This document shows positions 13,049-61,927 of a stretch of 64,000 nt of DNA, piece by piece. Under the pieces are notes generated by a model. It searched no databases. It was not told where the DNA came from and saw only the letters and a program-made list of their open reading frames with translations. This DNA is from Cyanidioschyzon merolae. Taxonomy: Eukaryota. The stretch lies in NCBI GenBank assembly GCA_000091205.1, contig AP006499.2; one strand, given 5' to 3'. Position 1 is the stretch's first letter. Every line of letters begins with the position of its first letter. The position numbers and the translations under genes were made by a program.

Positions 13049-13139
13049 GATACCGAGGCGTCAGCGCGAGGCAATGTATACCAGCACTGGCTGCAGAACG
13101 CGTTCGAGTCATGCACCTTAACCACTCGGTCACGTCTGC
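13007..13139 (-). tRNA. tRNA-Ser (anticodon CGA) with a 51-nt intron at the canonical 37/38 position (about 13052-13102)
   Basis: The cloverleaf was folded by hand on the minus strand. 
- The acceptor stem is GCAGACG/CGTCTGC, 7 of 7 paired, with discriminator G. 
- U8 is present; the D-stem has 3 bp (class II) and the D-loop contains GG. 
- The anticodon stem is CATGA/TCATG, 5 of 5, with loop C-U-CGA-A-A (U33, A37). 
- A long variable arm GGTG..CGCC is typical of Ser. 
- The T-arm is GCAGG-TTCGAAT-CCTGC, perfect. 
The mature length is 82 nt and the intron is 51 nt. Confidence 0.7.
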
Positions 13140-31093: not shown

Positions 31094-32315
31094 TTTCTCT
31101 CCGACGATAAAACGTTTCCATGGACAATGGGTCCCAGATTGTGAGATGGATAATGATTATCGAAAGAGCGTCCATCATGACGCACTTACCTCCGAGTTCC
31201 ATTACCTATACTTGCTTCCAGATGTACTGGTCGTTTCGTATGTCCTATCGGTCACAGAGTACCTGCTTTGGGCGCCTGCGGTAGCGCTTATATATCGCTG
31301 ATGCCGATGCATCACGGAGACAGAACAGCGTTGCCATACCGTTGAGTTCGCTCGGGCGTACTGTGAAATGTTTGGCTCCCTTCCCAGTGTCATCAATACC
31401 AACCTTTGCAGGCTTTTTCTGTGACCGTTTCCCGTCGCTTTCTCTTATCCCTGGCTTGACATGCACCAGTCTCGCCTTTCTATCAAGAACAGCTGTCCAG
31501 TGTCGAAGGACGTTGATCACAGCGTTCAATGGCCGACTTGCCGCTTCAGGCTGTTGTCGACGCATACCATGCACAGGTGAACGTTGCGATCTATGCTTCG
31601 CTTGCGATTTTCATCTTCCATGGATAGAGCTTCGGTTGCCCTGTCGCAGATTTGGCACGTCCGTGTAATCGGATGTTCGCATATGTCCACCACACCGCAT
31701 CCTCCGAGGTGCACCCTGTTTCACGTGAACACTCGCGTCGTCGCTCGCTACGTACCCGTGACGAATACGAGAAATCGTCTCGATGCCTTCCTCCATCTAC
31801 GCGCTCGGTGCAGTACCCTGGAATCACGGGCTTCTTCTGTGCGATCCAACTGCCGCTGCTCTGGCTGTTGCAAGCACGTGTTGTACTATTCTATAACGGA
31901 CTTATCGAAGACGATGTATTCAACGACGAAACTATTACTTGAAGCAAAATCAAGGCTGGACAAGAAGGCAGGGAACCTCGATCTGTCCATGGTCGCTTCG
32001 CGCAAGGCGGTTTCGCATAATCCACTGGAAGCGATCTCCACGATGACTAAAGACCGAGTCCGAGGCACTTTTCTATGCGAAGAGAAGAGACAGGAGCTCC
32101 TGGGGGCATACCCCGTGTAACATATCTCGCTGATGTCGCATGCCGTTCCGTTGATGGCCACCAAAATAGGAGGTTTTTTTCTCGACCGGAATTGCTTATC
32201 TTACGAGACATGTTGCGTGAGCTTCCGTCATGAGCTTGTGCACAAGCCTCCGATAGACGACGTTGGGTCTCCCTTCATCTTCTGTTGGCTGGCGAGAATT
32301 GCTGCACCATCGAAT

Positions 32316-37277: not shown

Positions 37278-38234
37278 CTACTCAGGCTAGACCATGAACG
37301 AAACCGAACAGCGATCGACCGCGGCATTATCCGCACACAGCGTCCACTACTGTATCACAAATAAAAATAGCAAAGGTCGACGACGAGCTTCGCGGTTCAC
37401 TGTATACTGTCGCTTTTCGAAGCGTCGCTTACATAGGCTCGTCTGCTCATGCGGAGGAGCGTCATTGCATGCGTGCTCGTGCTTGCACACAAGGCTGTGC
37501 CTGAGGCGTCGCTCGGCATGGATATCAAGTTCCATCCTTCGTCTCGATTAGTGTCCAGTCGAGCTGCATACTCTTTGTGACAACCAGTCTCCAGGTCGTT
37601 GTAGACGCCACATCGAACGGAGCGTCTATGATGAGGTGCTCGAGCAATCGAAGCAGCAACATCCGGTAGAAACGTAAAGCCTGCAGTTTTCCCACAATAT
37701 CGACGATAAACCTTCGCATTAGCGCTCTCCGACCGCACTCAGTGTCGCTCACGAAACTCGAGGATATCGTGCTGCTGAGAAACGAACGCTGTTCGCCTTG
37801 CTTGCCACCCTATCGCACTCAGAGAAAAACAGCACTGCACGAACACACAGTTGCAGCAGAGGAAAGGCTGGCGCCCTCGTCGAACTGTCCCTTTCGGAAA
37901 CGCTCACTTGTGCGCCTGCTCTTGGCGCATGTTACGCTCAAACCGGAGAACAGCCCTTCGGGTTTCCTCCAGCCAGAACTTGACGTTCGGTACTCGGTAC
38001 TGCTGAGCAACGTACATACCTGTACAGGTACCCATTAGGAATACAAAAGTTACCGTGGCAATTGACATTGCGCACAGTGGACGATTTGTACTGCAAAACG
38101 TGTGTCCAGGTGCGAAACGAAACACGAAACTGCGAACGAAAAAACGGACGGGAGTGTTCTGCGCCAGCGCCGCGCCGATCGTGAAGCCCTCCGTACACTC
38201 GCCGCGAATCGCAGGCTATGCTCCTGCCTGATGG

Positions 38235-39596
38235 GAATGAATCACGGAACTGCTCGATCTAATCATGTCTTGCGAATTTTTCCAAACTTGTATCGGTATG
38301 CAGCCTCGACTTTCCAAGTGCAGCGATACTAGTTTACGGGTTCATTTGTCGATTTTAGGATGATCGGTCGTGGTTTCGGTGTGGTGCATGCGACTATCTG
38401 GCGCTGGATCTCGCTAGGTGACTGGAATCAAGATCATTGGCGGCATTCGCGACTAAGGGCTCGTAACATAACCGACATGATCACAGCGTTCAGACGTGCA
38501 AGCCTCCAGGATTCTCCTTTTATTACGTGTTGTATACGCGAATCATAATCTTCATTCACGTTTCCGATCTTTCTGTTTCAAGGCAAGTTGGTTGTGCAGC
38601 AATGCGCTCCGCTGGATTGGCGATGAAGGGATCTCGACGTCGTCTCATTACGACTTGCAGAATATGTTATTTCAATCGCTCACTGGACTTGCAAACTCAA
38701 ATAAGCGATCCCTGGTCGAAAGACAAACACCCTAATCTTCGCGCCCGTCGACGAGACGGTATGCGGCACCAGCACCCTGATACCTCGCACGGGACAGGCT
38801 GCCAGAGGCTCCCGAGTCGCCTGTTCGCAAGCGCAGAAAAGCGCCCTGGACGCTGGGTTCAGTCGTCGCAGCGACCGCTGCCGGTGTAGCGCTCGTCACC
38901 GCTTTGCATGGAGTGAGCGTGCATCGCTCAATATACTTCGACTTGTCCTTCGAGCGGCGCTTTCCTTCGGGTAGTTGCTTCATCGTGGACAACATCGCGC
39001 TCCACGTACCGTCTACCGAGAGGAACAGCGTACGCTTCCATGTAAAACAGGCGGCGTGCTCCCCGAGAGGATCGCCCAGCACAAGCCCGTGATCGCTGCG
39101 TGCGACACTGGGCTCGGAAATGGAGCACGGCATCCAAGGCAGCCTTCTTCATTCGTCAAGGGCATGTACTGAGCGACGAGGCAAGCGTGCGCACGCCACT
39201 GGGTGCTTCTCCAGTGAGAACGTACGGCGTACGTGTGAGAGCACCTGATCACAGTTTCGTGTTACCGCTGCGAAGGACGCCACGAGTCTCTATGAAGACA
39301 AAATGAAAATCGCGAGCGAAGCAACGTTTCCAATTCCAGTCTGTGCATGGAATGCGTTGTCAACAGCGCGCAGCGACGGCTTCGGGGCCTGAACGCTGCC
39401 ATCACCATCGGTCGACTGCTGGCATCGAAGCAGGCGGGACACCAGAGACCAGCGTATATCAACATCTGATGCAAGAACTAGGAACAAGGACCCGTCGCAG
39501 AGGAGGCCCGCAAAGGCCGGTGTTGATGACGGGCGGAAGCGACGCTGACGTTCGATAGTACGTCCGAGTTGGAGGACCCGTTCCATGTTATTTTGC
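38235..39596 (+). repeat. 1.36-kb dispersed repeat, copy 1 (about 99% identical to copy 2 at 55328-56689, same orientation)
   Basis: The alignment holds a constant offset of 17,093 bp from start (cacggaactgctcgatctaatcatg) to end (gaggacccgttccat..ttattttgc), with about 10 substitutions. The supplied ORFs are duplicated pairwise: 38527..38889 with 55620..55982, 38732..39133(-) with 55825..56226(-), and 39290..39586(-) with 56383..56787(-). GC is about 45-50%. Confidence 0.9.
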
Positions 39597-39745
39597 TATC
39601 GGTTGAGTATCTCCGAATCGGTTCCCTATGAAGCAACGACGTGCCCGGCATTGGCGGGATCTGGAGCACCAGATGCGCGCACGACTTCACTGCGTCATCG
39701 TATCCTACATATGGCGCGCTGCGGTGACGTCGAGGGTTCGCTGCA

Positions 39746-40492
39746 ATGAACTCGCAGAAAACGATAGATGAAGAGGAACTGCGTATCCCCCGGGATGATC
39801 CAAGTGAGTGGATCAGTTCAGGGTCTGTAGAAAGGTCGACAGTGCTTTTTATCTGGAGTTCGGCGCCCGCGGAAACGCTGGCGGCTAGTCGCAGTGTTTA
39901 TCGTGCGCTTCAGGCGCAGAGGCAACTGCAGCCGGAGCTACGACTGCTCTGTTTCGATTTGCATGAACAAAGATCAAAGCTCTCTAAGGTTCTTGAGACA
40001 TACAAGGTTGGTGCGGTGCCAACTGTGCTCGCGTTCCCGGCGCACGCGCATCAACCCAGCGACCGTGTCGAGGGTGTCTACCCGGCACGCGTTGGCGCGC
40101 TGGTAGAACAGCTGGTTCACAACTCGGCTGCGGCGGATACGAAGACGGTGCGGCAGCGGGTTGAGAAGATGATTAGCGAGCACCCGATACTGCTTTTTAT
40201 GAAAGGAACGCCTGAGCGGCCTCGGTGTGGGTTTAGTCAACAGATCGTGCAGCTTCTTGTGGGGGATCTCAAACTGCCACGTGCCAGTCTTGCCACATTT
40301 GACGTACTAACTGACGAGCAGGTCCGTCAAGAGGTGAAAGCATACAGTCAGTGGCCGACATTTCCCCAACTTTACGTACGAGGTGAGCTCATTGGCGGCC
40401 TTGATGTCTGCCGCGAAATGGCACAATCTGGCGAACTCGCGGCATTACTGGCATCCGCGACGCGCGATGAACACGGAACAACTGGTCCTTGA
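39746..40492 (+). CDS. Monothiol glutaredoxin with an N-terminal thioredoxin-like domain (Grx3/PICOT-type)
   Basis: The Grx domain is ISEHPILLFMKGTPERPRCGFSQQIVQLL ... WPTFPQLYVRGELIGGLD, with a CGFS active site. It is preceded by a Trx-like domain (VLFIWSSAPAET...). Confidence 0.8.
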   Translation: MNSQKTIDEEELRIPRDDPSEWISSGSVERSTVLFIWSSAPAETLAASRSVYRALQAQRQLQPELRLLCFDLHEQRSKLSKVLETYKVGAVPTVLAFPAHAHQPSDRVEGVYPARVGALVEQLVHNSAAADTKTVRQRVEKMISEHPILLFMKGTPERPRCGFSQQIVQLLVGDLKLPRASLATFDVLTDEQVRQEVKAYSQWPTFPQLYVRGELIGGLDVCREMAQSGELAALLASATRDEHGTTGP

Positions 40493-41931
40493 GGTTAGCG
40501 CTGCAGACAACGATTGTTTCAGCTATGGTTAGTATGGGCAGGGTTGCGCGTATGGTGACTCTGCGGACGAGTGCAGAGAAAGCGGACCTGAGTCCAAGAT
40601 TCCCGGACTCTGTGCACGAACGAAGCCAAAACCTTCGCGGAGCGGCCTCACTGGTGGACACTCGTGAACCGCATATTTTCTGAATCTTTTGACGGTATTG
40701 ACCACCTGGAAGATGACCGGCATCGCGTGAATCGATGCGCAGGATTCCATAGTATTTTTCCAGATAGAATACTGGGGCACGCAGATTCATACAGCTGGCA
40801 TCTCATGCAGCGTGCCTTAGGGTGATGTCGTGCAGTGCTACAAATTCCGAGTGCGTGCTGCGGAGATCTTCGTAAGCTGAAAGAGGCAACGCGATTTTGC
40901 TGGAACAGGGGTTCCATGGAAAATCGAGATATCGAGCACCTGCCCTGCCGATGATGGCACTGGCCCGCCTTGACGTGTTCTTGGAACACTGCGACGCCAT
41001 TTGATCAGGATTGCGTAAAGAACACGCTGGAGCTCTGAACCGCACTGATCGCTGCTGAAATATCGCCCTGGATTCTGGGTCTGTGGTTTCGGCCAGAACG
41101 ATCGTCGATGGAAAATTTTCCTCGTGATACTACCCCAGAAGCAGTCTTAAATGCAGAACCCTGATGCCTGGGCTAACTGTACAAGCGCGCCTTTCATTTT
41201 TGTTCCTTCGTCCCGCTCGTATTCAACGAATGGAGTCTATTCCGTGGACCGAAGAGAGATGGTGGGAAATTTTATACTATCATAACGTACTTGCGAAGAA
41301 TGGCATTCACTCTACAAGTCACTCATTCCGCGATCATCAGTGGGTTATTGAGCAAAGCTGCTCGTCGTCCTTGTTCTCGTCGTCGTGCTCTTATCACGGA
41401 TTCTGTTCTACTCTGTGCCCATCGTCACCTACTCGTCAATCTTTTTAACTCGATATGTTTTCTTAAAAATAGCATAACAGAATCCATGGGATGTGAAGTG
41501 TCCACACCGTTGATATGAACCGCGATGAACGTACATGAATGGACAAAGAAGTACGCACACTGTCATAGGAGACCGTCACGCAGTGAACTACTCAATATCC
41601 ATCTAGTATTAGAACGCGAATGCGTATCCCAGGAGGCAGGCGGCATCGTTTCGCTCGAGGAGACCTCGTTCAGGGGAAACGGTAGCGCCGCACAGTGGTA
41701 CGCAAAGAGGGGCAAACCGCTGTTTGTAAAACAGGTACTCTCGAGCACTCCAACAACATTAGCCCTTGCGGATTTTCAATCGTAGAGTTACGACGAAATC
41801 GCCAAATGAGCAAGATCGTTCAGCACCACTCCATTAACTGAAGCACGCTTCATGGTGCCTGCTTCTCAAAGTCTTCTCGCTGCCCGTATGACACTGCCGC
41901 TTTCCAACACTCGAAAGCAGCCAGGGAGTGC

Positions 41932-43453
41932 GTGGCTCAGATCGACATTGACAAGCACTTCGTGCCAGCGTATTCTGCCTGGTTCAATACAAACCAATGT
42001 ATCTTCTCTGTTGTCATACGCCATTTTGATGTTCTAAGACGCATGGACGAATCGTTTGCAACCGTGGCGTCGCTCGTCATCAAGTCGTTGTGTACCTTTG
42101 CCAGCCGTGAACTACGGTGCTGCCCCTGTGCTCTTGCGGGGCAGCAATCGAAAAGATTTGCCTCGGTCAGTGGATATATGCTGGTGACGGCGACGGTGAC
42201 GAGCTTGTAGTTAAGGCGTAGTGGATATACAAAGACGAACGGAGAGCTTCGGTGATGCTGCCAAACTAGTACTTCTGAATTCCGCGAAGAAATCAGGTAT
42301 AGAGCATGTCGATTACATGCGTGTCGCCCCGGCACGTAGAGGAAGCAGGTTACTATTGCACTAGTCTCCGCGAGCAACAAGGAAGCGTTCTCACGACCTC
42401 GCGCAGAGCGCTGGCAGAGCTTGATGAAGATTTCTCGCTTAGAGGGAGGAAGTGGGAAGGGTTTTTAAAGAATGATAGAGGGCAACAGAGTATCGAGCTG
42501 CAAAGCCTTTGTCAAAAATTGGCATGTGTCGCGCGACGAGACTCATGTTCAGGTGTTCAGGATAGATGAAGAGCAAGACTTTATGATCAGTGTGGATCCC
42601 GGATTCAACAACTTAATCGCTGTAGCTGTCCCTCTACATCCAGAGGACAGAGCTGAAAATCTGAACGGCGTGAAGTTGTACCAGATCAACTTTTCCAGGC
42701 CTGGGTACCAACAAGAGTCGGGTATGGCAGACTCAAGGCGGCATACCAACAACTTGAATGATTGTGTCAGGACTGGTCTCGACGCTGTGTGCACCGTGTC
42801 GTGCAGCGTGCGCTGCTTTGCACGCTTCATTTAGAGAGTACATCAGCGTAAAAGTGGCTCGTGCGGACGATCTTTGGCTGGAGTATGCGACTTCGTGCTA
42901 TGACCGCCAATGGATTGGGGTTTACTGAGGCAGGGAACGTGCGTCCGCCAACGTCTTCAATGAGTTGGACAAAGAAATGACCGATACGTATTATCGTTTG
43001 GCGTCAGCCTATCACGCAAGACGTGCTGAGGCGCGAAAGGAGTGCATCTCTGATCCTTTGATGAGCGCGTTCAACGAGTGCACGAATCGATGCTGCACGA
43101 CTCGCGTCGATGAGTTCAGGACTGCATTCATGCATCAGGGGCGCGGCCGCACATTGGAGTAGGCAGAGAAGGGGCGCGTGAAGAAGAGACGGACGCACGA
43201 GGTGGTATGCGGTAAGCTGATCGAACGTCAGGTGACGAGGGAATCAAAATTGAGAGGCTTCCCATGTCGTACTTCCACCGGCAAGCATGCGCGCAGGCAC
43301 TCTCTGCACCAAAGCTTGAAAGCCTCGATCAACCTGCGAAATTGTTCCGTGCTTCCGGAGCGCCCAGCGCCTTTGTGTCGAGCAGATAATCGAGGGAATC
43401 GTTTATTGGTGAGGTCGGGGATTTTGCTGACACACACGGAATACTTTCGATAA
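41932..43453 (+). pseudogene. Decayed TnpB/Fanzor-like (RuvC-fold, OMEGA-family) ORF remnant, copy B, in an AT-rich gene-free island (about 40.5-43.9 kb)
   Basis: The ORF chain is on the plus strand and interrupted by stops and frameshifts. 
- ORF 42472..42834 carries the RuvC-I-like motif RIDEEQDFMISVDPGFNNLIAVAVP (canonical hhGIDLGxxNLAxxA). 
- ORF 43178..43453 carries VVCGKL...FPCRTSTGKHARRHSLHQSLKASINLRN, which is Cys-containing with an NAAxNI-like tail. 
- The RuvC-I to RuvC-III spacing is about 265 aa. 
- Region B is homologous at protein level to copy A around RuvC-I. Confidence 0.35.
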
Positions 43454-43931
43454 AAACAGTCAATGGCTACGAGACGTGTCATTGGATTCCCGCCTGTGGC
43501 AAAGCACAAATGCAGCACAGTACGGTACGGTCAGCGGTCCATCAGGCTTGGAGTGCCGTCTAAATGCATGAGTATGGACCGGAAACGCTTTTCCTGGGCT
43601 ATCGGAGAACGTGAACGGTGTTCCATTATTCGATATTACAGAGTAAAGCACCATGCCAATCCACAGGCTATCTAATGAGTGAATTCATTATGCGACGCTG
43701 GTCAACTGGAAAGCAGCCCGCAAAGTCCGCCTCTGGTGCGAGGAGCCGTCAATTCAGACACAGAGCACTCGATTCAAAAATCTGGCAAAACTTTTTTCGG
43801 AACGATCCATCCACGAAAGATTGCTCGGAGCATGCAGCTTGTTGGCAATCGTCCTTCGCAGGAATCGGGGAAGCAGCGGCTGCATCCGGCAAATGCATTG
43901 CTACTGATTCGTTCCGAATCGCGCTTGACCT

Positions 43932-44852
43932 CTATCGATTCGCTTGGTACGTATGCCGCATTTGCTTCGTCTCCGGCGCTTGGAGATCTTGTGCGGAGGG
44001 AGAGCGTTTCAATCCTCTGGCAAAAGCACTTCGGATATCAAGGCCGGGTTTTTTTCCGGGCTCATCGCGTCGAGGCTCTATCAATGACGGACCTTCGTTC
44101 TTGACGGAAGACACTGTATTCGATACAGGGTGCCAAACGATTTGCTCAGTCGGCTGCAGACAACGATGCACCGCCACACGAGCAGGCACCTGCTCAACGT
44201 CGAGCCATGCCTGGAGCTGATCCTCGGTTTCCAAAAGTGCCGGCATGCGGTTATGCATCCACTGAATTTTGTCGCTGGCTGCGACAGTAAAAATCGCAAA
44301 TCGATTCATCTCTGTCTCCTCAACGAACAAGGCGGCCATAAACAACGGTCGGTCGATCATGTCGTGCGCGTTCCGAGGCGCCAAGTGGTCCTTGCTCTCT
44401 CTCTTTGTAACACCGTGATAGATAAAATAGGGTATTCGGGATGCTTTCGTCATTGTTTTGATTTTACCCACGTCCTGTTGCTCACCAGGGGCATCTGCAG
44501 CGCTCCACTCGTAAAACCCGTTCGCAATAACCACAGCGCGCTGACCTGCATCTAACGCTGACCGGAAGCTCGCCTTTTCAAGAGCAGTCTCCGCCCGCAC
44601 GTTGATGACGATTGGAGGGCTCTCACCCTTACCAAAAGTTCGCCCACGAATCGGAAACGCCCAGCGCATTGGTTGCAGAACACGCTCGCCTGAAACAGTG
44701 CGCAGCAGTGGTACCGTTTGCTGCGGAGCTACATTGTAGCGCGGCTGGTAGTGGTAGCGCTTTTCCTGGTCCTTCGCGTCAGCCCAGCGAGTTGTTCCAG
44801 CAACTCGTTCAAGCTGTTCTCGAGAGTAGTACAGCGCGAAGCGTCCGCACAT
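43932..44852 (-). CDS. HMCES: SRAP-domain protein (HMCES/YedK family abasic-site DNA-protein crosslink sensor)
   Basis: The protein starts MCGRFALYYS, giving the catalytic Cys2. RYNVAPQQTVPLL and the rest of a SRAP-domain-length sequence are present. Confidence 0.8.
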   Translation of the reverse strand: MCGRFALYYSREQLERVAGTTRWADAKDQEKRYHYQPRYNVAPQQTVPLLRTVSGERVLQPMRWAFPIRGRTFGKGESPPIVINVRAETALEKASFRSALDAGQRAVVIANGFYEWSAADAPGEQQDVGKIKTMTKASRIPYFIYHGVTKRESKDHLAPRNAHDMIDRPLFMAALFVEETEMNRFAIFTVAASDKIQWMHNRMPALLETEDQLQAWLDVEQVPARVAVHRCLQPTEQIVWHPVSNTVSSVKNEGPSLIEPRRDEPGKKPGLDIRSAFARGLKRSPSAQDLQAPETKQMRHTYQANR

Positions 44853-44956
44853 GCACGCGAGCAGCGCTTTTTAAAAGCACTGCGAAGCAAGGCGCCTCCA
44901 GCACACGCCTAGGCACGAACGGAGACAGCGTCGCGGAGATACGCGCATCACACGGC

Positions 44957-44993
44957 TGTGCGTGCGTGCGTGCGTGCATGCGTGCGTGCACGC
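44957..44993. repeat. (GTGC)n tetranucleotide repeat in the 110-bp divergent intergenic region between HMCES (-) and the aminotransferase (+)
   Basis: The run is tgtgcgtgcgtgcgtgcgtgcatgcgtgcgtgcacgc. It probably lies in a bidirectional promoter or 5' UTR, because the annotated aminotransferase ORF start is likely too far upstream. Confidence 0.8.
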
Positions 44994-46638
44994 CAGAACC
45001 CTGCCAGATCTCCAAATGGCGCAAGGCGCACGCTGCGCGGCCACCGCCGCCATAGCACTCAACGGATCGTATGGAATCGGGCAATACGCGGCAATACGCT
45101 TTCGCCATACACATCGCGCATTCACTCGCAAAGATCTTTGCAGTAACTGGCAATCCCTTGCAGCCATGAGGACGATTCACGAGCGTAAGGATGGAACGTT
45201 TATGACACCTGCTTTCATCAGCAGCTCTCATGTATTCCTGTCGGATCCTTGCTTTTGGTCGAGTGGAAGGGTTTCAGGGAGACGGCACCGCAACGCAGTC
45301 TACTCGAAGCCCCAAAGTGGCACGGTCCGCCTGCCAACCCGCCTCGTGCTCGAAGACGCGCCGAGTCGGGAGAAGACTACCCAGTTTGATCGCGCTGAGT
45401 TTGATCGCTATGTTCAAAATACGTATGCGCGGTATCCGCTGACCCTGGTGAGTGGCCGCGGCTCAAAAGTCGTCGACGACAACGGGCGAACGTACATCGA
45501 CTGTGTGGCGGGAATCGCGACTTGCTCCCTAGGCCACGCAGATCCGAGGCTTGTTTCTGCAGTGTCGGACCAAATTCGTCGCCTACATCATGTGTCGAAC
45601 TTGTATTATACAGTAGAGCAGGCAAGTTTAGCCAAGTGGCTTGTTGAGCACTCCTGCGGCGACCGCGTGTTCTTCTGTAACTCGGGCGCTGAGGCCAACG
45701 AGGCAGCGCTCAAGCTGGTACGGAAGTACGCGCACACCCAACTCGGTTTGGATGTGCCGGTGGTGGTCACGGCGATGAACAGCTTCCACGGTCGAACGCT
45801 GGCGACCATCACTGCAACAGGTCAGCCGAAGTACCAGCGCGGCTTCGAACCGTTGATGCCGGGATTTCGATACGTTCCCTACAACGACGTAGCTGCACTG
45901 GAACGCGTTGTCAACGAGCTAGAGCAGATGCGGAACTCTTGGTGGCGACGGATCCAAGGTGCACCTCGAACTGGCTTGGCAGCGATTATGCTGGAGGCGT
46001 TGCAAGGCGAAGGGGGCGTCATGCCAGGAGACCGAGCCTTTTTCGCTGCTGCTCAGCGCATTTGTGAACGAACTGGTGCATTGCTGGTGCTCGATGAGGT
46101 ACAGGTTGGCATGGGGCGGACAGGTAAGCTCTTTGGCTTCGAGAATCTCTCCATACAGCCGGACATCTTCACGCTCGCCAAGGGACTTGGCGGCGGAATA
46201 CCTATCGGGGCCATGATCTGCAATGCCCGCTTGCGCGATATCCTGCAACCTGGCGAGCACGCCTCGACCTTTGGCGGGAATCCGCTGGCCTGTCGTGCGG
46301 GTCTCGTGGTCACTAGGGCGCTGGTCGAGGACAATGTGCTGGAGAATGTACGCGCTCGCGGCGCTCAGCTTCGTAACACGCTCGAGTCCCTGGCTCGTGC
46401 GTACCCTTCGGTGGTGCGCGAGACTCGTGGCTGGGGCCTCATTCAAGGACTAGAGTTTCACGAGCCGTGCTCACCACAATTTGTCCAAGCTGCGATGCGT
46501 GAGGGCGTCCTGCTAGTGCCAGCAGGCCCGCGTGTTGTTCGCTTCGTACCACCCCTGACGATAACGGAAAGCGAGCTCGAAGAAGCCATTCAGGCGACGC
46601 GGCGAGCTTTTCGAAATCTATTCGGATCCGAGTCCTGA
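44962..46638 (+). CDS. argD: Acetylornithine aminotransferase (class-III PLP aminotransferase, arginine biosynthesis), with an N-terminal targeting extension
   Basis: LVSGRGSKVVDDNGRTYIDCVAGIATCSLGHADPRL...FFCNSGAEANEAALKL...LVLDEVQVGMGRTGKLF...DIFTLAKGLGGGIPIGA matches ArgD/ACOAT throughout. The real start is probably at an internal Met around 45.0-45.2 kb. Confidence 0.85.
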   Translation: MRACVHACVHARTLPDLQMAQGARCAATAAIALNGSYGIGQYAAIRFRHTHRAFTRKDLCSNWQSLAAMRTIHERKDGTFMTPAFISSSHVFLSDPCFWSSGRVSGRRHRNAVYSKPQSGTVRLPTRLVLEDAPSREKTTQFDRAEFDRYVQNTYARYPLTLVSGRGSKVVDDNGRTYIDCVAGIATCSLGHADPRLVSAVSDQIRRLHHVSNLYYTVEQASLAKWLVEHSCGDRVFFCNSGAEANEAALKLVRKYAHTQLGLDVPVVVTAMNSFHGRTLATITATGQPKYQRGFEPLMPGFRYVPYNDVAALERVVNELEQMRNSWWRRIQGAPRTGLAAIMLEALQGEGGVMPGDRAFFAAAQRICERTGALLVLDEVQVGMGRTGKLFGFENLSIQPDIFTLAKGLGGGIPIGAMICNARLRDILQPGEHASTFGGNPLACRAGLVVTRALVEDNVLENVRARGAQLRNTLESLARAYPSVVRETRGWGLIQGLEFHEPCSPQFVQAAMREGVLLVPAGPRVVRFVPPLTITESELEEAIQATRRAFRNLFGSES

Positions 46639-48732
46639 ACTCCGGAATGGTTCGATTCAGTAGACGGGATATACCATTGTTCGCCGTCAGAGCTGCAGCG
46701 CGCTTCGTGGTGTACCAACGCCGACACCGGTGCGTCCCATGCGCGCGCGCAACGCAGCGCGCAGACTGCTATGCAAACGAGCAAACTCCCGATTCTGGGC
46801 CCGCAGCGTTTCGATCTCCCGGCAGAGCTGAGGGAGGATCCAGCGTTCGATGAACAGACACTCTGTACGATATCTCTGAGCGACCGCGCGCCAGTAGAAC
46901 AGCTCTGTAGAATTTGTTTGGCATCTCGAACAAGACAGCTCCATGGCGGATCCGTGTAAACCACCAGTTGCACTTTGGTCAAACGCCGTCGTCGAAACGC
47001 GTGTTGCTGCAACTGCGGCCTGCCGTCTGTGATGACACGGATCTGGATCCGTGAAGCATGCGTGCATGCGTGCACGCACGTATACGTACATAAATGTATA
47101 GATTCTGACGTGCGTGGCAGTCATCCATTCACAGATGCACCTGCACGCATACGTGCATACACGTACTCACTCATGCGTTCAAGCATGCCCGCCGCGCAAC
47201 ATTCCCCCAGTGCCTGTGCTCAAAACGAACCCATGTTGGTAAAGACAACATTCTTTGTCATTCGCTCTGTTTCGCCGGGGATCCTCGCACGTCACCTTTG
47301 CAAGAAACCGTCGATGTTTGACAGTGCCCACGAGACCATGTCTCTGGATGCTGCACCAGTAACCGCAGTGATGTTAACGTTGGCCAGTCGCCCGACAAAC
47401 CGCAGATGCGCTTCTCGGTTCGTCCGTACCGTACATTTCCGTTTCATGCGTGCAGCCTATCCCTTGCGTTATTGCCGGAGACGATCCTTTTTATCAGGAG
47501 AGCCGTTCGCATCCATTCACAAGCGCATGCCCAACGCAATCTGCGTTCGCGTTCTGTTCATGATGAACACGCGCTTCGGGCTGGGACCGCGCGGCGCCTG
47601 GGGGTTGCGCTTAACGTTCACGTTCTGCTAATCGCCGCTAATCGCAGGATTCGGACGGATGCGGGCACCACCATGGCAATGGAACATCGCTCGCTCGTCG
47701 TATACGGTAGCAAAACATCACCACTGAATTGCTTGCTTCGGAGCGAAAGAATTTGTTTTGACGTCCGAATTCGCCAGAAGGTGCCATTTAGAACATGTAA
47801 GCGACTATGTCACTGTAAACACCACGATACCACAAACCCTGTGAGATCCGAGCAAGTTCGCTGCCTCCTATACGTGTCTTTGGGTGCGCTCATGGCTCAT
47901 TGTCGGCCTCCGCGTGCAGGGCGGTCACAGAGCAAGATTCGAAGCAGCACCAGTGGCATTCGACTGAGCGTAACAAACCACGATATGCTTCCGTCCGTCC
48001 GGGAATGGTGAGGCTCTGGCCCCACTTCGCAATGCAAGGTGCAGGAAACCAACGGAGGAACGGAGCTCGCGCGCCAGCAAGAATTAGTTCTCCACATGAG
48101 CCTCCAGGCGTTCGCTGTGTTTTTTGTCGAGTCCATGGGACTTCGGCCACCGGTTGAAAGTATCGGGTGAAGGCAACGCTTAACGTGCACCATGATCGGA
48201 GATATCGTACATAATTTGGAGGTTTGCATCGTTTTCAAGCGGGTGCCTTTGAAGCGAGCGCTATCAACAGCCAGTAACGTGGCCAGCGGCAGCTCAGATA
48301 ATCTCCCGGGTGCCTGGTGCTGTTCGGGGAACCCACAGCACCGGGTTTCATCAGCACATTGTGGCCGTCGTCGAGAGACCAAGCAGCGGCACCAGTCCAG
48401 ACACGGCCGCAAGTAGCCGAGTCCGCGCTGCGCACACGCAACCGCACTCGTTCGGGCATTGACGGGCGACTCGGGATGCGTATGGCAACCAGCGAGCTCC
48501 TCCTCGGGCTGCGTACTTGCTTGCACTGTCAAAGAGTTCCCTCAGAGCGCCATGACATTTTGAAGACTGTGTGTATGTGAATGTGTGTGTGTGCTGAATG
48601 AGAGGCACGCATCGGTGGCCTCTCGGCGCACAAAGCAACCAAACGATGCATCCATGTTCTCGCCGCGAAGAGACGCGTCACCCAATGCAGCGCTATGATT
48701 GGGCATGTTTCAAAGACAACGCACTGACTGCT

Positions 48733-49869
48733 TCACCTCTGCTCTCTCGATAACTCCATGAGACGCTGAGTCGTTTGTGGAAAGGTTGGGCGCTCATCGT
48801 CAACTGCGATCCGAGTCGCCTCACCAGGCGATGCGCAGAAGAATGTCTGCCAAGGTTCTGGAAAGACTCGGAAAAGCAAACCATTTGGTAAGGGCTTCAA
48901 GTAGTATATGGGCTCAAATTGCTCAAGATAACGCTTGCGCAGGGCAGTTAGCCGTGGATAAAACAGAGGTGGATAGTAGTTGCTTCGGAGGCGGTCCATG
49001 TTTCCATTTAGGACGACGATGCTTGCGTCGGGATACAACAACGCTGGTCGCTCCAGTTGTAGCCATTCGTCTATGTTAAACCCGGGCTGGACGACGAACA
49101 CAAGTGCTGGCGCCTCGACCTGTTGCAGGAACGCCGGCCTCTCGTACAGCGGCAGTGCTGAGAGCGTGAACGTATGCTCACTGCTTCCATAGACTTTTTC
49201 CGCTATTTTGGCCTCGGCCACGTCCGGAAACACCAAGTGCAGGCGCTTGCGAAATGAAGCTGCGAAAGGTTTGATGATTTCCCGCGCGTGCGAAGTATTG
49301 GCGTCTAGGATCCTCGACAAGGCAGCTGTGGTGTCCCGAACTGCTGGAAAAGAAACTTCATAAAGCGCCGGCGAGCGCGTTTTGGTTTCAGTAGCCTTCG
49401 ACAGCGCATTCTGAACCTGCCTATGCAATGATGCAGTGTCCTTCGGTAAACTTGTGTATTGACAAACCAGAAACATCAAGCGGCGGGAAACGCGTCCGCC
49501 ATGAAGCGCTCGAGGTTTGCGCGCTGCAGGCGCAGATCCAGCGCGTCGGGGCCAGGTGCGCTGCGGCCACGACACGTAGGTGTCCTTAAAATCTAATTTA
49601 ATACAATTGTATCCAATATCCCTTTCCACTGCGAATCGCCATGCGCCGCACCGTACACAACGGATGCAGGCCAATGACTGCGTATCGGTTACGCAGGGTA
49701 TCTCGAGCAGCGCGTGCTTCAACGCAAAGTGTGTTTCCCAGTACTTGGTGCCGTCTGAGGCACTCGAGCGTATAGTAGGTGCCCGCGAGACGCTGTATGC
49801 GCTGTGTTTCGTGGTGAAGGGCTGGTTAACGGCCTTGATAGACGTTCTCACTGTCTGCTGGTTTCGCAC
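48733..49869 (-). CDS. Hypothetical protein, 378 aa; function unknown (possibly a plant/algal DUF-type protein)
   Basis: It is a long GC-rich ORF. It forms a divergent pair with the downstream hydrolase gene across a 110-bp spacer. Confidence 0.35.
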   Translation of the reverse strand: MRNQQTVRTSIKAVNQPFTTKHSAYSVSRAPTIRSSASDGTKYWETHFALKHALLEIPCVTDTQSLACIRCVRCGAWRFAVERDIGYNCIKLDFKDTYVSWPQRTWPRRAGSAPAARKPRALHGGRVSRRLMFLVCQYTSLPKDTASLHRQVQNALSKATETKTRSPALYEVSFPAVRDTTAALSRILDANTSHAREIIKPFAASFRKRLHLVFPDVAEAKIAEKVYGSSEHTFTLSALPLYERPAFLQQVEAPALVFVVQPGFNIDEWLQLERPALLYPDASIVVLNGNMDRLRSNYYPPLFYPRLTALRKRYLEQFEPIYYLKPLPNGLLFRVFPEPWQTFFCASPGEATRIAVDDERPTFPQTTQRLMELSREQR

Positions 49870-52973: not shown

Positions 52974-55211
52974 ATGAGTACACTGCTGATACCAGCGTTT
53001 GCAATAGCAGTCGCAGGACTTGCTGCGCTTCGTTGGAATACAGCGAAACAGGTGCCGCATCAAGTCGGAAGGCGCCCGAACGGAGCGCTCCGTCTACCAT
53101 TAGGGGAAACGAACAACGGCGAAGCGAACGACAGGTCTGGTTCCCCGGTCTTATCTCGCCAGGACGCTCTTCAACAAGCGAGAGCCGAAGCAAGCGCCTA
53201 TGCAGCTCAAGAACCGGTTCAAGCGTTTGCACGAAAGGTTCGCAGTTTGCGACCGGAGGACCTTCTCGACCGCTTTGGCCCCAGTGCATCGCTGCACTTT
53301 GGCACAGCGGGTTTACGTGAACCCATGGGCCCTGGATACAACCTTTTGAATACAGTGGTTGTTGTTCGAGCGACTCGTGCGGTACTGGGGCACCTTGCCG
53401 ACACCCTGGGCTGGGAAGCGCTGCGAACGCGTGGCATCCTTATCGGCTATGATGCGAGGCAGCACTCGGAAACCTTTGCGCAAGCTGCTGCCGTGGTTTG
53501 TGCATCGCACCAGGTTGCCTTTGCTCTACTCGATCGTGTCGTGCCGACACCACTGGTTGCCTTCGGGGTGGTTCAACAACAACGCTGTGCTGGAATCATG
53601 ATCACGGCGAGTCACAATCCGAAGGAATACAACGGTTACAAACTCTATATGGAAAATGGCTTGCAGATCAGTGCAGCCGTTGCCAAACAGATTGAGGCTC
53701 GGATGCGGTCCGAGGCGTCCTCGCCCCGAGAACGACAGGCCGAGCTTCTTTTCGCGACCAAGGAGCTGGCCTCGTTACCTCGTCAGTCCGTGGAGACACT
53801 CTGGCAGGCCTACGAACAGCGCATTCGCCATGAACTTTATGCGCCGATGAGGTTCGATAGCGCTCGTCTTCAGATCGTCCATACTGCATTGCATGGTGTG
53901 GCCGACGATTACCTCAGGCGACTTTTTGCGGCCTTTGCATTACCGACCTATACGCCGACGGCGGCACAACAGAGCCCCGACGGTGATTTTCCAACGGTCC
54001 CGGTTCCGAACCCGGAAGAGGGTGCTGCAGTTCTGCGTCTGGCTATGCAGACTGCAGAGCAACTTTTGCGATCGAACAAGACGAATGCTGTGGTGGTTTT
54101 AGCGAATGACCCAGATGCAGATCGGTTGGCAGTGGCAGAACTAGCACCGCAAACAAATCCTCGGTGGCACATTTTCCACGGTGATGAAGTTGGTATCCTA
54201 TTTGCCTGGTGGATGCTGCAGCAGGTCGAGAAGCTTGGTAAGCAACGTGCTTCCACGGAAATGGTCTTCATCAACAGCGTTGTTTCCTCTCAGATGCTCG
54301 GAGCATTGGCTGAACACCAGCACAAGCTGCGCTGCCGCTGGATACAGCATTATCCCGGTTTCAAATGGCTTATGGAAGTGGCGGTAGCGCAAACGCGACC
54401 GCAACAGCAAGTGCTCCTTGTCTACGAGGAGGCGCTCGGCTATGCGCTCGGCGGCCTGCGTTCGGGTACGTTGCCGGTAAATGACAAGGACGGCATCGCC
54501 GCAGCGATCGTCGCAGCCCAGCTGGCTTACTTTTGCCACCAAAACAGGACTTACGGCTCGCTGCAGGGACTTCTCGAGAGCCTCTACCGCCAGTACGGTC
54601 TCTACCTCCAGCACTCTGGATATTTACGCTGTCGAGACTTTCGCACATTGACGCCTTTGTTTGAGCGCATTCGTCAACGCCTCGCGTCGGGCGAGCTGGT
54701 GCTCTTCACCGCCGACGATGGATGCGGAGGCGGCAAACCGTTACCGCCGCGACGGTACCAGATCCAAAGCGTCTATGACTGGACTCGCGGCTACTATTGC
54801 GCGTATGGCTGCGAGCCGGTGCCGCTGTCGCTACCGCCTCAACCCAAAACGCACTTTATGACGTTCTGCATCAGAGAGAGTGATGAACATAGGCTGAGCC
54901 TTCAGAGACAGCGGCGACAGCAGCCGAGGCAAACGCCTTCCGGAGACCGCTCGAGAACGCCATCGTCTCCGTCGACACCGATGAAGCCTGCGAGTCCTTC
55001 GCTCCCCGCAGACGCGGACCTACGAATAACTCTGCGGAACAGCGGCACAGAACGGAAACTTAAGTTCTACTCAGAGCTCCATGTAACTAGATACAGTCGC
55101 TTAGAAGACCGCGATGAACTGCGAAAGGCTCTTGATCGCGCAGTTCGCGCGTTCATCGAGGCGTTCCTGCAGCCAGGCCTACACGGCCTGGAGTATGGAA
55201 CAGATCGTTAA
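52974..55211 (+). CDS. Alpha-D-phosphohexomutase, PGM2/PGM2L1-type (phosphoglucomutase/phosphopentomutase), with an N-terminal extension
   Basis: The active-site motif is GIMITASHNPKEYNGYKLY. Further matches are ILIGYDARQHSETFA, VVLANDPDADRLAV and the C-terminal domain 4. The length is 745 aa. Confidence 0.8.
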   Translation: MSTLLIPAFAIAVAGLAALRWNTAKQVPHQVGRRPNGALRLPLGETNNGEANDRSGSPVLSRQDALQQARAEASAYAAQEPVQAFARKVRSLRPEDLLDRFGPSASLHFGTAGLREPMGPGYNLLNTVVVVRATRAVLGHLADTLGWEALRTRGILIGYDARQHSETFAQAAAVVCASHQVAFALLDRVVPTPLVAFGVVQQQRCAGIMITASHNPKEYNGYKLYMENGLQISAAVAKQIEARMRSEASSPRERQAELLFATKELASLPRQSVETLWQAYEQRIRHELYAPMRFDSARLQIVHTALHGVADDYLRRLFAAFALPTYTPTAAQQSPDGDFPTVPVPNPEEGAAVLRLAMQTAEQLLRSNKTNAVVVLANDPDADRLAVAELAPQTNPRWHIFHGDEVGILFAWWMLQQVEKLGKQRASTEMVFINSVVSSQMLGALAEHQHKLRCRWIQHYPGFKWLMEVAVAQTRPQQQVLLVYEEALGYALGGLRSGTLPVNDKDGIAAAIVAAQLAYFCHQNRTYGSLQGLLESLYRQYGLYLQHSGYLRCRDFRTLTPLFERIRQRLASGELVLFTADDGCGGGKPLPPRRYQIQSVYDWTRGYYCAYGCEPVPLSLPPQPKTHFMTFCIRESDEHRLSLQRQRRQQPRQTPSGDRSRTPSSPSTPMKPASPSLPADADLRITLRNSGTERKLKFYSELHVTRYSRLEDRDELRKALDRAVRAFIEAFLQPGLHGLEYGTDR

Positions 55212-55327
55212 AGCAGGAAAGTGCTCGAAACGTTCATAATTCATCTGGATATGTTTTTAGTCGCTTTAGTAGGTTTCCGCTGGGATCCGAGAAACGCACA
55301 CGCATACCCTACACTTGTGTCGGATTG

Positions 55328-56689
55328 AAATGGAGCACGGAACTGCTCGATCTAATCATGTCTTGCGAATTTTTCCAAACTTGTATCGATATGCAGCCTC
55401 GACTTTCCAAGTGCAGCGATACTGGTTTACGGGTTCATTTGTCGTTTTTAGGATGATCGGTCGTGGTTTCGGTGTGGTGCATGCGACTATCTGGCGCTGG
55501 ATCTCGCTAGGTGACTGGAATCAAGATCATTGGCGGCATTCGCGACTAAGGGCTCGTAACATAACCGACATGATCACAGCGTTCAGACGTGCAAGCCTCC
55601 AGGATTCTCCTTTTATTACGTGTTGTATACGCGAATCATAATTTTCATTCATGTTTCCGATCTTTCTGTTTCAAGGCAAGTTGGTTGTGCAGCAATGCGC
55701 TCCGCTGGATTGGCGATGAAGGGATCTCGACGTCGTCTCATTACGACTTGTAGAATATGTTATTTCAATCGCTCACTGGACTTGCAAACTCAAATAAGCG
55801 ATCCCTGGTTGAAAGACAAACACCCTAATCTTCGCGCCCGTCGACGAGACGGTATGCGGCACCAGCACCCTGATACCTCGCACGGGACAGGCTGCCAGAG
55901 GCTCCCGAGTCGCCTGTTCGCAAGCGCAGAAAAGCGCCCTGGACGCTGGGTTCAGTCGTCGCAGCGACCGCTGCCGGTGTAGCGCTCGTCACCGCTTTGC
56001 ATGGAGTGAGCGTGCATCGCTCAATATACTTCGACTTGTCCTTCGAGCTGCGCTTTCCTTCGGGTAGTTGCTTCATCGTGGACAACATCGCGCTCCACGT
56101 ACCGTCTACCGAAAGGAACAGCGTACGCTTCCATGTAAAACAGGCGGCGTGCTCCCCGAGAGGATCGCCCAGCACAAGCCCGTGATCGCTGCGTGCGACA
56201 CTGGGCTCGGAAATGGAGCACGGCATCCAAGGCAGCCTTCTTCATTCGTCAAGGGCATGTACTGAGCGACGAGGCAAGCGTGCGCACGCCACTGGGTGCT
56301 TCTCCAGTGAGAACGTACGGCGTACGTGTGAGAGCACCTGATCACAGTTTCGTGTTACCGCTGCGAAGGACGCCACGAGTCTCTATGAAGACAAAATGAA
56401 AATCGCGAGCGAAGCAACGTTTCCAATTCCAGTCTGTGCATGGAATGCGTTGTCAACAGCGCGCAGCGACGGCTTCGGGGCCTGAACGCTGCCATCACCA
56501 TCGGTCGACTGCTGGCATCGAAGCAGGCGGGACACCAGAGACCAGCGTATATCAACATCTGATGCAAGAACTAGGAACAAGGACCCGTCGCAGAGGAGGC
56601 CCGCAAAGGCCGGTGTTGATGACGGGCGGAAGCGACGCTGACGTTCGATAGTACGTCCGAGTTGGAGGACCCGTTCCATTTTATTTTGC
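55328..56689 (+). repeat. 1.36-kb dispersed repeat, copy 2
   Basis: See copy 1. It begins about 115 bp after the PGM2-like stop and ends about 690 bp before the COQ6-like gene 3' end. Confidence 0.9.
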
Positions 56690-58899: not shown

Positions 58900-61800
58900 T
58901 CATACGCAGGTGCCCGATGAAAAAAGATTCGCACGCCCACACCCCTGGAAACAAACGTCTTTTAAAAGAAAAAAGTTGCTGCCAGTGGTACAGCAGTGGC
59001 AAACACGCCCTATACAAGAAGTCACCAACTGACTTGCAGACGCCTCCCAGTTTTTTTTCGACCGGCCGCCTACTACTGGTTTCAACTTTTTCTCATATAA
59101 TGCCACTTTGAGAGGTTGTCCAATAAAGTTCCCTCTTGTCGACTCTGAAGGTTTTTTCTCCATCGCCGCACATCTCCTTATACATTGATCGCGGCATGAA
59201 AGCCACGGTTCACAAACTCCATACGTTTCCTGCCATCTTTGGTTGTACTTGTCAATGCAAGTAGTCCACGAACTTTCGCCATCCTTTCCATATGCTCTTC
59301 CGTCAGCGGACCGTATTTTGCTATTTCCTCAGGGCTCCGCTGACACTTTTCCATCTCCACTCCCTGAAGTGTACAACCCAGCTAATGGTGTGTATAGGAC
59401 GTTCGGAACTCATCCATCGGTATTGTAACAAAACGCCGTGCACACTCTTTGAATGTTCTTGTCGTTGGAGCTGGCGTAGTCCCTTTTTGGGTCATCTAGC
59501 GCCCTGCTCCGTACGCCACTACCAGCCTCTGATTTTCATCCTCCTTCAAGGCGCTCAACGCATTGAAAAAATTCGCGAACGCCCGCTGCTTCCCGCATTA
59601 CATATTCATACGCAAACGAACCCACCGAGGCTTTGTATACTCCTCCCACAGCGCATCCCAATGGGCAACACGAACTTCCATGAATTTCCGAAAAGCTTCA
59701 AAGTCCGCTCTTCGGCTCGCTCAAAGCTTCCAGGTGATCCTTCATTCCTGCATTCCGTGTCTCGATTCTCTTCCTCGCATTCATGATTCCCGATTCTCGA
59801 TAGTATCTCGCTCACGAGAACCTCAAAAGACGCATATCTTTCTGACGTAAGTTGCCGTTGTTAGCAACTTCTGCACGCTTGGGTGCAGCGATGGTTACGA
59901 TATTCGTATTCCCAGGGTTCGTGCCAATGACAAAATCGTTATCCTCTACATCCTGCGTGGCAAGATACGCCTCCTTCTCATCTCCACGCTTCGTCACGGC
60001 CGCAGCCGAGGGCGGAACTCGACGATCTGCCTCCAAACGCCGATAGTGAACACACTTGGATACTTCACCGGTTTCGATCATCCTAGTGAATACCTTTTGT
60101 TTGCTCGTATTGAGAAGTTTGAAATTGAGGATATTCTTCCAGTACGTCTCACGGTTTTCGCCGGAGAATTCCCGCCTGCTGGCATTGACCTCCGGACTGG
60201 TCTCCCTCATGATGCCGTGAAGGATTCTGGAGTCGATAGTCACGAAATGTGGCTTGATGTTCCACAATGGAACTACGTTGAAACGCTTCCCCATTAGGGC
60301 AGCCTTCCGTCTCTTCCATTCTCCATTTCTCTCCTCTCTCAGCTTCATCTCTGCCTTGCGTTCGAGTTCTCGGTCCAAAAACACGAAATAGCGTAACATG
60401 AGGCGATAGTATCTTTCCTTATCTTTTTTCAACGCTGATATCTTTTCTGCTGGATTTGCCAGCCCCAGTACCGCACGATGCTCTTTAATAGCCGCACGGA
60501 TGACGGAATCTTTATTCTTTCTCCTGTGTGACGCCATCTCTCCGACGAATTCGGTCTCATCTTTATGTTGGCAATCGTTCGTGATGCCATCGATACTGGC
60601 CCATATCCCCTGGCAAGAGAGACCCCGGTGCAGCGCAAAGATGGAGCGTATCAGAAAGCATTCGAGGTTCAAGGTCATAGGGTCCCTCAGGTTCGTGAGG
60701 TACTTCATCGCCCCATGGCAGTAAATATTCCCGTCACCGCTGTATCGAGTACCCTCGCAGCGGCATTCCGCGAAGTTTTCCTGGAGGACATGCACTCGCT
60801 CATTTCTCCAAGACGTTTCCGCTGTGCCAACCATCAGGTGGCGAATAACGGTCTTGTCGAAAAATTCCACCCGCACCTCGACCGTTTTGATGTCCGTCAC
60901 GTCTTCGTTCATCTTCCTCACCAAATGCATTATTCTTGCAAAAGCCTTGCAATCGCTCATGCAGTAGTGCGCGATACGGTCTCTGAGATCCTCCCGCAAA
61001 TTTTGCTTCTACGGATTCATGATATGCTTGAGACGACAGGCTTTCGGTACTATTTCGACGTAGTGTCGTCTTTCCTCGAGCCATTGGCGTCGGGCCGCCT
61101 GCCTTAGCTTCTTCGTCTCATCCTGTTCCTCTCTGCTCTGCACTGTTTTTTCTTTGTTTCCGCCTGCCGGCGGTAATAGCCCTCTAGGATCCTCCACTTC
61201 CATGTCCAAACTTCCCTTTTTCATTTTTGAAAACGAATGCACTTTGAACTCCCCTGCTATAAACCCCGAAAACTCACTTGAATACACTCACTTGAGGGTT
61301 GAAACAAAACTGAAATAAAAGACTGTATTTTTCGACGACTTCAACATCGTCGCAGCTTGTACTTTAGAACGAGAAGTCAACGAATATTCAGGATCGCGTT
61401 TCGCTTCAACGGCGAGATGCGCGTCGTGTCCCATGTATACCAGGTATGGAGGTGCGTCTATCGACCGCGCTACATAGAACAAATAACAGAGACTAACGAT
61501 CAAGTATCAACGATATAGAGATTTATTCCCCCTCGATGATAAATGTGAAGAGAGGAAAAAGCTTTCAGTATTGTCGAAGGCCTACCCTCGAGGCGGAAGG
61601 TCCCGCGAGCCGGACAAGTCTGCCAAGCTTGCGCTCTGTGCGACTCTGCAGTTGCGGGTACTTTAGCGAGACCTAAGCTGAAACTCGTACGCAACGCAAT
61701 TCTTTCTGGTGCGAGGGGCAGCTAAGCTCCGTCTGGGCGTCGCCCTGGTCGCAGTGGTCTCCAAGTATATCGCTTCGCGCTGCCATAGGCAGCACGTCTA

Positions 61801-61927
61801 TCTGCGCAGCTTGCTTGCCCCCAGAATCATGATGCATCCCGATTAGGTATTGCGTGAACCACACCTCGAGCAGACGCCCTCCGTAGTACGGCAAAGCCGT
61901 TGTATCCCCATGTTGCATCTGCTCCAA
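58900..61927 (-). pseudogene. Decayed TnpB/Fanzor-like (RuvC-fold, OMEGA-family) gene, copy A, filling an AT-rich island (about 58.9-62.0 kb; 40-45% GC against about 60% in flanking genes)
   Basis: Consecutive minus-strand ORFs tile the island: 61673..61927, 61500..61694, 61288..61503, 61009..61287, 59812..60999 (395 aa), 59606..59815, 59178..59360 and 58900..59163. 
- Three of them share one frame and are separated only by a single in-frame TGA (61288-90) and TAG (61009-11). 
- The others require +/-1 frameshifts. 
- The RuvC-I-like motif [19 protein letters not shown] is at about 59885-59935, with Asp replaced by Asn. 
- An RuvC-III-like tail FVNRGFHAAINV is at about 59181-59215, about 230 aa downstream. 
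- The RuvC-I block aligns with copy B: [26 protein letters not shown] against EEQDFMISVDPGFNNLIAVAVPLHPE. Confidence 0.4.

Follow-up and report, generated by a model that had tools for sequence, protein, structure and literature searches.

What occupies the interval between two convergent genes when no protein is annotated there? We ask this of a stretch of 64,000 nucleotides of the red alga Cyanidioschyzon merolae 10D (GenBank assembly GCA_000091205.1, contig AP006499.2; hereafter, the window), in which a glutaredoxin gene and an SRAP/HMCES gene are separated by 3439 bp. A preliminary description, made from the sequence alone, proposed that this 3.4-kb gap contains no intact gene but does contain a dead, diverged TnpB/Fanzor-like remnant, the second in the window and a protein-level relative of the first (copy A). 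Fanzor1 is a eukaryotic, transposon-borne relative of bacterial TnpB. The answer given by profile hidden Markov models (HMMs), tblastx, and blastx is that the gap contains a decayed Fanzor1 gene, copy B, at positions 42355-43453 on the plus strand; the best explanation, to which we assign a probability of about 0.88, is that copy B is a Fanzor1 pseudogene that comprises the C-terminal ~55% of the protein and is probably the relic of a sister lineage of the Fanzor1 family already described in this alga.

That family was reported by Bao and Jurka (2013, Mob DNA 4:12; PMC3627910), whose supplement gives a protein (CMe-1) and a 3169-bp consensus (CMe-1A) for C. merolae; it is the single Fanzor1 family assigned to this species in their survey. 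Our profile search of 1.84 billion representatives identifies 1516 relatives, the full-length members of which carry the motifs DPGRxN, DEFRTS, and RDxNAAxNI; 78 full-length relatives make up the alignment that we designate A2. Removing the 4 CMe-1-like sequences from A2 leaves an independent Fanzor1 profile of 74 diverse proteins, and hmmsearch with this profile detects copy B in two segments, that is, 42361-42837 (E 1.9e-18; profile positions 287-438 of 625) and 42824-43441 (E 1.8e-25; positions 430-613 of 625). The CMe-1 family HMM matches the same segments with E-values of 9.5e-9 and 7.7e-34, and the published CMe-1 protein matches copy B by blastx with an E-value of 6.6e-37. When copy A (minus strand, 58.8-61.4 kb) is compared with 41-44 kb, tblastx returns three collinear segments with a joint E-value of 4.6e-30; the longest extends over 157 amino acids with 35% identity, and one spans the RuvC-I motif. 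The two copies do not match at the DNA level. Thus, the remnant proposed in the preliminary description is recovered by profiles from which the local family has been removed, its protein-level (but not DNA-level) likeness to copy A is stronger than had been thought, and the profile searches and Fanzor alignment that were recommended there give support instead of exposing a chance match.

By profile and by predicted fold, the family to which copy B belongs is Fanzor1. The A2 profile matches the solved Fanzor1 chains 9cf0 (Parasitella parasitica PpFz1; E 3.4e-20), 8gkh (Spizellomyces punctatus SpuFz1; E 5.6e-13), and 9cer (Guillardia theta GtFz1; E 2.1e-5) and no other nuclease; the diverse A2 profile alone achieves this, the shallower family profile (A1) having no match in the PDB. 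The Cas12f1-like TNB domain (PF07282) is matched by 14 of the 78 members of A2. An AlphaFold model of one family member (P0005, with A2 as input) has a predicted local distance difference test score (pLDDT) of 83.6 and a predicted template-modeling (TM) score of 0.79 (a first run with a shallow alignment, pLDDT 42, was discarded); a Foldseek search of the PDB with this model places Fanzor1 structures in all of the top seven positions (E 2.7e-15 to 1.5e-10, TM scores up to 0.62), followed by Cas12 variants and the ISDra2 TnpB. The fold evidence is from the family member, not from copy B itself. The link between copy B and the solved structures is a transitive one that runs through the family profile.

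Within copy B, the open reading frame (ORF) fragments on the plus strand between 42.3 and 43.5 kb fall in two frames. Segment 1 (42355-42837, +; reading frame of 42361) includes the end of the WED domain, where TDG has become GNR, followed by the RuvC-I strand with VDPG and by the first part of the REC2 helices. Segment 2 (42824-43453, +; +1 frame relative to segment 1) continues with REC2 helices, the RuvC-II region (VDEFRT), a degenerate TNB/zinc-finger region, the RuvC-III region (QSLKASINL), and a C-terminal tail that ends in a TAA (43451-43453) located near the natural C-terminus of the family. The ORF at 42472-42834 (+) holds FMISVDPGFNNLIAVAV, and the ORFs at 42965-43162 and 43178-43453 contain RVDEFRTAF and HSLHQSLKASINLRN, respectively.

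Two of the three catalytic positions of the RuvC site are intact. In a profile-to-structure alignment, D314, E486, and D555 of A2, all invariant in that alignment, correspond to catalytic D383, E541, and D606 of SpuFz1 (numbering from PMC10432273). The RuvC-I Asp is kept (GAT at 42595-42597, + strand, in S-V-D-P-G; aligned to D314), as the preliminary description had noted, and the relocated RuvC-II Glu is also kept (GAG at 43112-43114, +, in V-D-E-F-R-T; aligned to E486), although the TS that should follow is degraded to TA. The RuvC-III Asp is lost: the position that aligns with D555 is now Ser (AGC at 43313-43315, +; RD to QS), so the family motif N-R-D-x-N-A-A-x-N-I reads H-Q-S-L-K-A-S-I-N-L in the hmmsearch alignment. 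This replacement is consistent with an inactivated relic and not with an active member of the family. The WED TDG motif is lost as well, with R-M-I-E-G-N-R-V-S in place of the family's F-T-G-T-I-x-T-D-G-V-S (D243 invariant in A2); in copy A the same position is T-G-E. DPG and the relocated glutamate ('Ealt') mark the Fanzor/pro-Fanzor clade, whose Fanzor1 members have TDG as a signature in the WED domain (PMC10711439).

A segment that contains Cys and ends in KASINLRN had been likened to the zinc finger plus RuvC-III region of TnpB and placed about 265 aa downstream of RuvC-I. The RuvC-III half of this likeness stands, that is, KASINLRN aligns to RDxNAAxNI, but its Asp is replaced by Ser, and the zinc finger is absent; the RuvC-I Asp and the RuvC-III position lie ~240 codons apart. 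Between RuvC-II and RuvC-III, copy B has two isolated Cys residues and no CxxC pair of a C4 finger (CxxC...CxxC). Such a finger is equally missing from the A2 consensus and from the intact CMe-1 clade, which conserve a single Cys (in LLWCxST), so its absence from copy B is a trait of the clade and not a sign of decay. In this respect, the CMe-1 clade departs from the defining Fanzor motif of Bao and Jurka, of which the CxxC...CxxC zinc finger is a part (PMC3627910). Several members of the CMe-1 clade (P0001-P0071) and of A2 also carry 2-4 tandem repeats of an acidic unit of ~25 aa (…KHEExKEAxxATQxVxDND…) immediately before DPG.

The reading frame of copy B is interrupted four times on the plus strand: by an in-frame stop at 42466-42468 (GF*RMIE), which the metagenome variants of the same locus have in common; by a single frameshift in the interval 42811-42826, where the homology changes frame and the population variants show no indel; by a second stop at 42926-42928 (VY*GRE), at the conserved LYGGK motif; and by a third at 43160-43162 (TLE*AEK). 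A complete Fanzor1 ORF has about 600-750 aa and includes an N-terminal REC/WED half; only positions 287-613 of 625 are detectable here. Given these three stops and the frameshift, the loss of both the RuvC-III Asp and the WED TDG, and an N-terminal REC/WED half that is absent or unrecognizable, copy B cannot make a nuclease in its present state.

The relic is smaller than first described. Its start had been placed at 41932, but the detectable homology begins at ~42355 (blastx matches to the environmental relatives P0081 and P0101 start at 42349-42355), and the ORF at 41932-42210 has no Fanzor1 homology by profile HMM; the relic cannot be shown to include 41932-42354. The remainder of the gap upstream (40493-42354) is without detectable Fanzor1 homology, Pfam domains in its ORFs, or repeats: its best Fanzor1 HMM score is -6.1, compared with scores up to +1.0 in 150 shuffles, and the N-terminal half of the protein is not recognized there. 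Relaxed blastx gave weak LYGGKxRxFA matches at 41408-41488 and 41599-41751 (best E 0.13), candidates for a further fragment that we rejected when the HMM gave no support. The space upstream of copy B, ~1.9 kb, equals the length of the CMe-1A 5′ non-coding region plus the N-terminal half, so a full-length insertion with an unrecognizable 5′ half is possible. At the ends of copy B we find no repeats, terminal inverted repeats (TIRs), target site duplications (TSDs), or DNA common to the window's three islands.

The gap is bounded by the glutaredoxin gene at 39746-40492 (+; PF00462) and the SRAP/HMCES-type gene at 43932-44852 (-; PF02586). The window proteins that flank copy B are identical to BAM81985.1, BAM81986.1, and BAM81987.1 of C. 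merolae 10D; the first two border the gap, and because their accessions are consecutive no coding sequence is annotated in it, in agreement with the claim that the gap holds no intact gene. The gap is merely mildly GC-poor (51.0%, with 51.8% in 41932-43453, vs 55.8% in the whole window); the ~45% GC first reported for it is too low.

How is copy B related to the CMe-1A elements, of which C. merolae contains about 150 copies, each ~80% identical to the consensus and without TIRs or a recognizable TSD (PMC3627910)? Copy A, the nearest relative of copy B within the window, is a full-length but inactivated CMe-1A: by blastn, consensus positions 2-3169 correspond to window positions 62121-58956 (58956-62121, minus strand) with 83.1% identity, and it carries a frameshift and in-frame stops. 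Copy C (4880-5353, -) is what is left of a CMe-1A element after internal deletion (it matches consensus positions 872-960 and 2849-2971 with 72-75% identity; family HMM E 5.8e-12), in which the C-terminal peptide KRMEFVN...GQPLILEIYQEELKP is still visible; with this third remnant and the copies elsewhere in the genome, the expectation that further copies exist is borne out. Environmental assemblies encode 71 proteins closely related to the frame-repaired translation of copy A (55-97% identity), of which the intact ones read DPGNTNI ... VDEFRTSYTHH ... VNRDFNAAINIR. Copy A has ~1 indel column for every 16 substitutions. The CMe-1A consensus has no DNA match in 40.4-44.0 kb (blastn, word size 9, E 1e-3), but the same search recovers copies A and C together with two isolated fragments that correspond to the initial ~245 bp of the element (31102-31346, +, 80% identity; 23046-23270, +, 70%). 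These solo fragments probably belong to TE-N2_CMe, a short element reported to have the same 5′ 635 bp as CMe-1A (PMC3627910). At the 3′ end of copy A (58960-59010, -), a short hairpin and then a T-run directly follow the Fanzor stop codon (TGCCA...TGGCA in copy A; GCCGCCA...TGGCGGC in the consensus); this hairpin is a candidate for an element end structure or for a part of the omega-RNA. We also considered mutation resembling repeat-induced point mutation as the source of the low GC and rejected it: GC-to-AT transitions in copy A show only a mild excess (173 vs 113), and with 52% GC in the CMe-1A consensus itself the 'AT-rich island' of the preliminary description mostly reflects the element's own composition.

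Several other explanations for copy B must be weighed. The probability that its RuvC-like motifs are chance matches in non-coding DNA is close to nil. This explanation would account for the absence of any match when frame-repaired copy B (and also copy A) is searched singly against Pfam, PHROGs, and the PDB; however, it is already refuted by profile E-values of 1e-18 to 1e-34 over ~360 collinear codons in the correct order, and by the tblastx match to copy A. It is very unlikely that copy B arrived with a giant-virus or other foreign DNA insertion and not as a cellular transposon. Large double-stranded DNA viruses do carry Fanzors, viral dissemination has been proposed (PMC3627910), and the composition of the interval is slightly off the host mean; against this, a scan of viral contigs with copy B returned nothing (it used exact peptide patterns and reaches close relatives only), the 3.4-kb gap contains no viral-type ORF or Pfam domain, the closest clade of copy B is the resident CMe-1 lineage, and the 52% GC of the CMe-1A consensus makes the composition that of the element. 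We give equally little credence to a copy B that is still functional, whether as a domesticated truncated protein, a gene recoded by readthrough or programmed frameshifting, or a non-coding RNA locus. Its frame is less broken than its divergence predicts, two of three catalytic residues are kept, and a metagenome scan with copy B found only three contigs, all from the same locus, with 99% DNA identity and the same disruptions, yet the flanks are conserved to the same degree: variant density among the metagenome contigs is 11.0 per kb in copy B and 10.7 per kb in the non-homologous gap, and copy B is no lower than the neighboring genes. The stops and the frameshift fall at conserved core positions, the gap contains no Rfam family, and the RNA fold of the 3′ flank is no better than that of shuffles (z -0.43). 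Lacking a complete frame and one catalytic residue, and with no RNA family, unusual 3′-flank RNA structure, or annotated gene found, copy B most likely does nothing now.

The history of copy B, given its derivation from Fanzor1, is a separate question. The preliminary description regarded copies A and B as old, independently decayed members of one family. The absence of a recent duplication holds, since there is no DNA match, but the history that it implies for copy B, that is, an ancient CMe-1A copy whose DNA similarity was erased by neutral drift, is unlikely. CMe-1 is the nearest clade of copy B, CMe-1A is an old family (copies ~80% identical to the consensus, PMC3627910; copy A 83%), and copy B lies in a similar gene-free, slightly GC-poor interval, all as expected for such drift. 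However, the identity of copy B to every relative is ~30-36% of amino acids (32% for CMe-1 and 32% for copy A), and reaching ~33% by neutral decay requires ~0.5-0.6 substitutions per site, with ~12-13 stops. When we simulated neutral substitution in the homologous 368 codons of CMe-1A to 31-44% identity, the mean number of stops was 11-13; a single run out of 300 at 0.4 substitutions per site had three or fewer, and none of 300 did at 0.6. Copy B has three stops and one frameshift in ~365 codons, and residues conserved in the profile are still present; the indel-to-substitution ratio of copy A would give dozens of indel columns and, hence, many frameshifts. The stops and frameshifts are too few for neutral decay, so most of the divergence between copy B and CMe-1 probably accrued under coding constraint, in a separate sister lineage. 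A neighbor-joining distance tree likewise places copy B as a long-branched sister of the CMe-1 clade, within an environmental Fanzor1 group (P0073, P0080, P0081, P0101). If copy B is derived from Fanzor1, we infer that it is probably the relic of such a sister lineage, inactivated later.

Some observations weigh against this assessment. The single-sequence searches described above are empty, and a word-indexed search of 5.8 billion protein clusters returned no relative of copy B at E 1e-3 or better; the assignment to Fanzor1 therefore rests on profiles, and that collection contains no intact copy-B-like protein at roughly 45% identity or more. The separate lineage is inferred from simulations with a simple model of uniform substitution and from a distance tree that contains a long branch, and no second copy of the lineage appears in the protein-cluster, metagenome, or viral scans or in the window. 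Copy B could also be the last trace of a second ancient Cyanidiales Fanzor1 lineage, absent from the 2013 survey, that was long under coding selection as a single-copy locus, was perhaps retained or domesticated by the host, and lost its function only recently; we doubt this version, but if it were true an intact orthologue might persist at the Grx-SRAP interval in related Cyanidiales.

For the sister-lineage relic, we propose the following history. A sister Fanzor1 lineage would have diverged from the CMe-1 lineage while still coding, would then have inserted between the glutaredoxin and SRAP genes, and would have been inactivated after insertion, with copy B most likely its only detectable relic. 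Fanzor1 proteins bind an omega-RNA transcribed from the 3′ end of the transposon and cut DNA that matches the guide next to a target-adjacent motif (TAM), using a D-E-D RuvC site (Saito et al., 2023; PMC10432273). By analogy with the family, copy B would once have been mobile and would have cleaved DNA next to a TAM under the guidance of an omega-RNA.

The importance of copy B beyond annotation is small: the unannotated 3.4-kb interval between BAM81985 and BAM81986 holds a Fanzor1 pseudogene, and the relic itself has no activity to exploit. The presence of Fanzor1 in C. merolae was published in 2013, and the element described then is the one that copy A represents, but copy B is apparently an unrecorded relic of a sister lineage; this suggests that the compact C. 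merolae genome once had at least two Fanzor1 lineages, compared with the single CMe-1 family reported, and contributes one more observation on how old RNA-guided nuclease genes are in red algae and how they turn over. Hot-spring metagenomes offer intact Fanzor1 genes of the CMe-1 clade, which has no zinc finger and comes from a thermoacidophilic host.

We also made observations elsewhere in the window. Four environmental contigs of up to 100 kb (L001, JGI 3300050357; L002-L004, Ga0207433, Ga0078972, and Ga0209012) are 99% identical to the window and include both Fanzor loci with the same defects, from which we conclude that those metagenomes are rich in a nearly identical C. merolae population. 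There is a 1367-bp direct duplicate (38230-39596 and 55323-56689), 99% identical and without a long ORF. Contig L004 joins 54343-56689 directly to 39597-49451; either the two copies of the repeat recombined to give a structural variant, or the junction was made in assembly. At 13007-13139 (-), Rfam matches the full tRNA model (48.9 bits) across a span of 133 nt, where ARAGORN detects no tRNA; the gene presumably contains an intron and is of the unusual kind reported in C. merolae. An imperfect (GCGT/GCAT)n microsatellite, gtgcgtgcgtgcgtgcgtgcatgcgtgcgtgc, is located at 44935-44992, in the promoter region that separates the divergent SRAP and acetylornithine transaminase genes.

The bacterial TnpB proteins (IS200/IS605, IS607) and Cas12 have a RuvC fold core in common with copy B's family, whose model matches ISDra2 TnpB (8H1J; E 7e-3, probability 1.00) and, weakly, several Cas12 structures. 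In contrast to TnpB, the family has the Fanzor-type DPG, the relocated glutamate, long REC/WED insertions, and a eukaryotic host. We rejected TnpB as the identity of copy B itself on similar grounds: neither copy B nor copy A has a Pfam match, the Glu is relocated, the host is a eukaryote, and the gap contains no TnpA or recombinase ORF.

SpuFz1 (8GKH), PpFz1 (9CF0), and GtFz1 (9CER) match copy B's family by profile and predicted fold; catalytic D383 and E541 of SpuFz1 align to the Asp of DPG and the Glu of DEF in copy B, and D606 aligns to its Ser. The characterized Fanzor1 proteins are ~12-17% identical to the family. Unlike them, copy B is interrupted and truncated and has no omega-RNA, TAM, or transposon end that can be assigned. 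CMe-1A differs from copy B in amino acid sequence (~32% identity) and has no DNA similarity to it; it is multi-copy, whereas copy B is single-copy within the searches made, and it has the N-terminal half and the 5′ TE-N2_CMe-like region that are not recognizable in copy B. However, CMe-1/CMe-1A resembles copy B in its genome, in its gene-free setting of slightly lower GC, in the absence of a C4 zinc finger, and in protein architecture, with the same order of motifs: the WED end, DPG, REC2 helices with LYGGKxRxFAxFFN, VDEFRT, RGLxxxST, xxNAAxNI, and the RPP tail.

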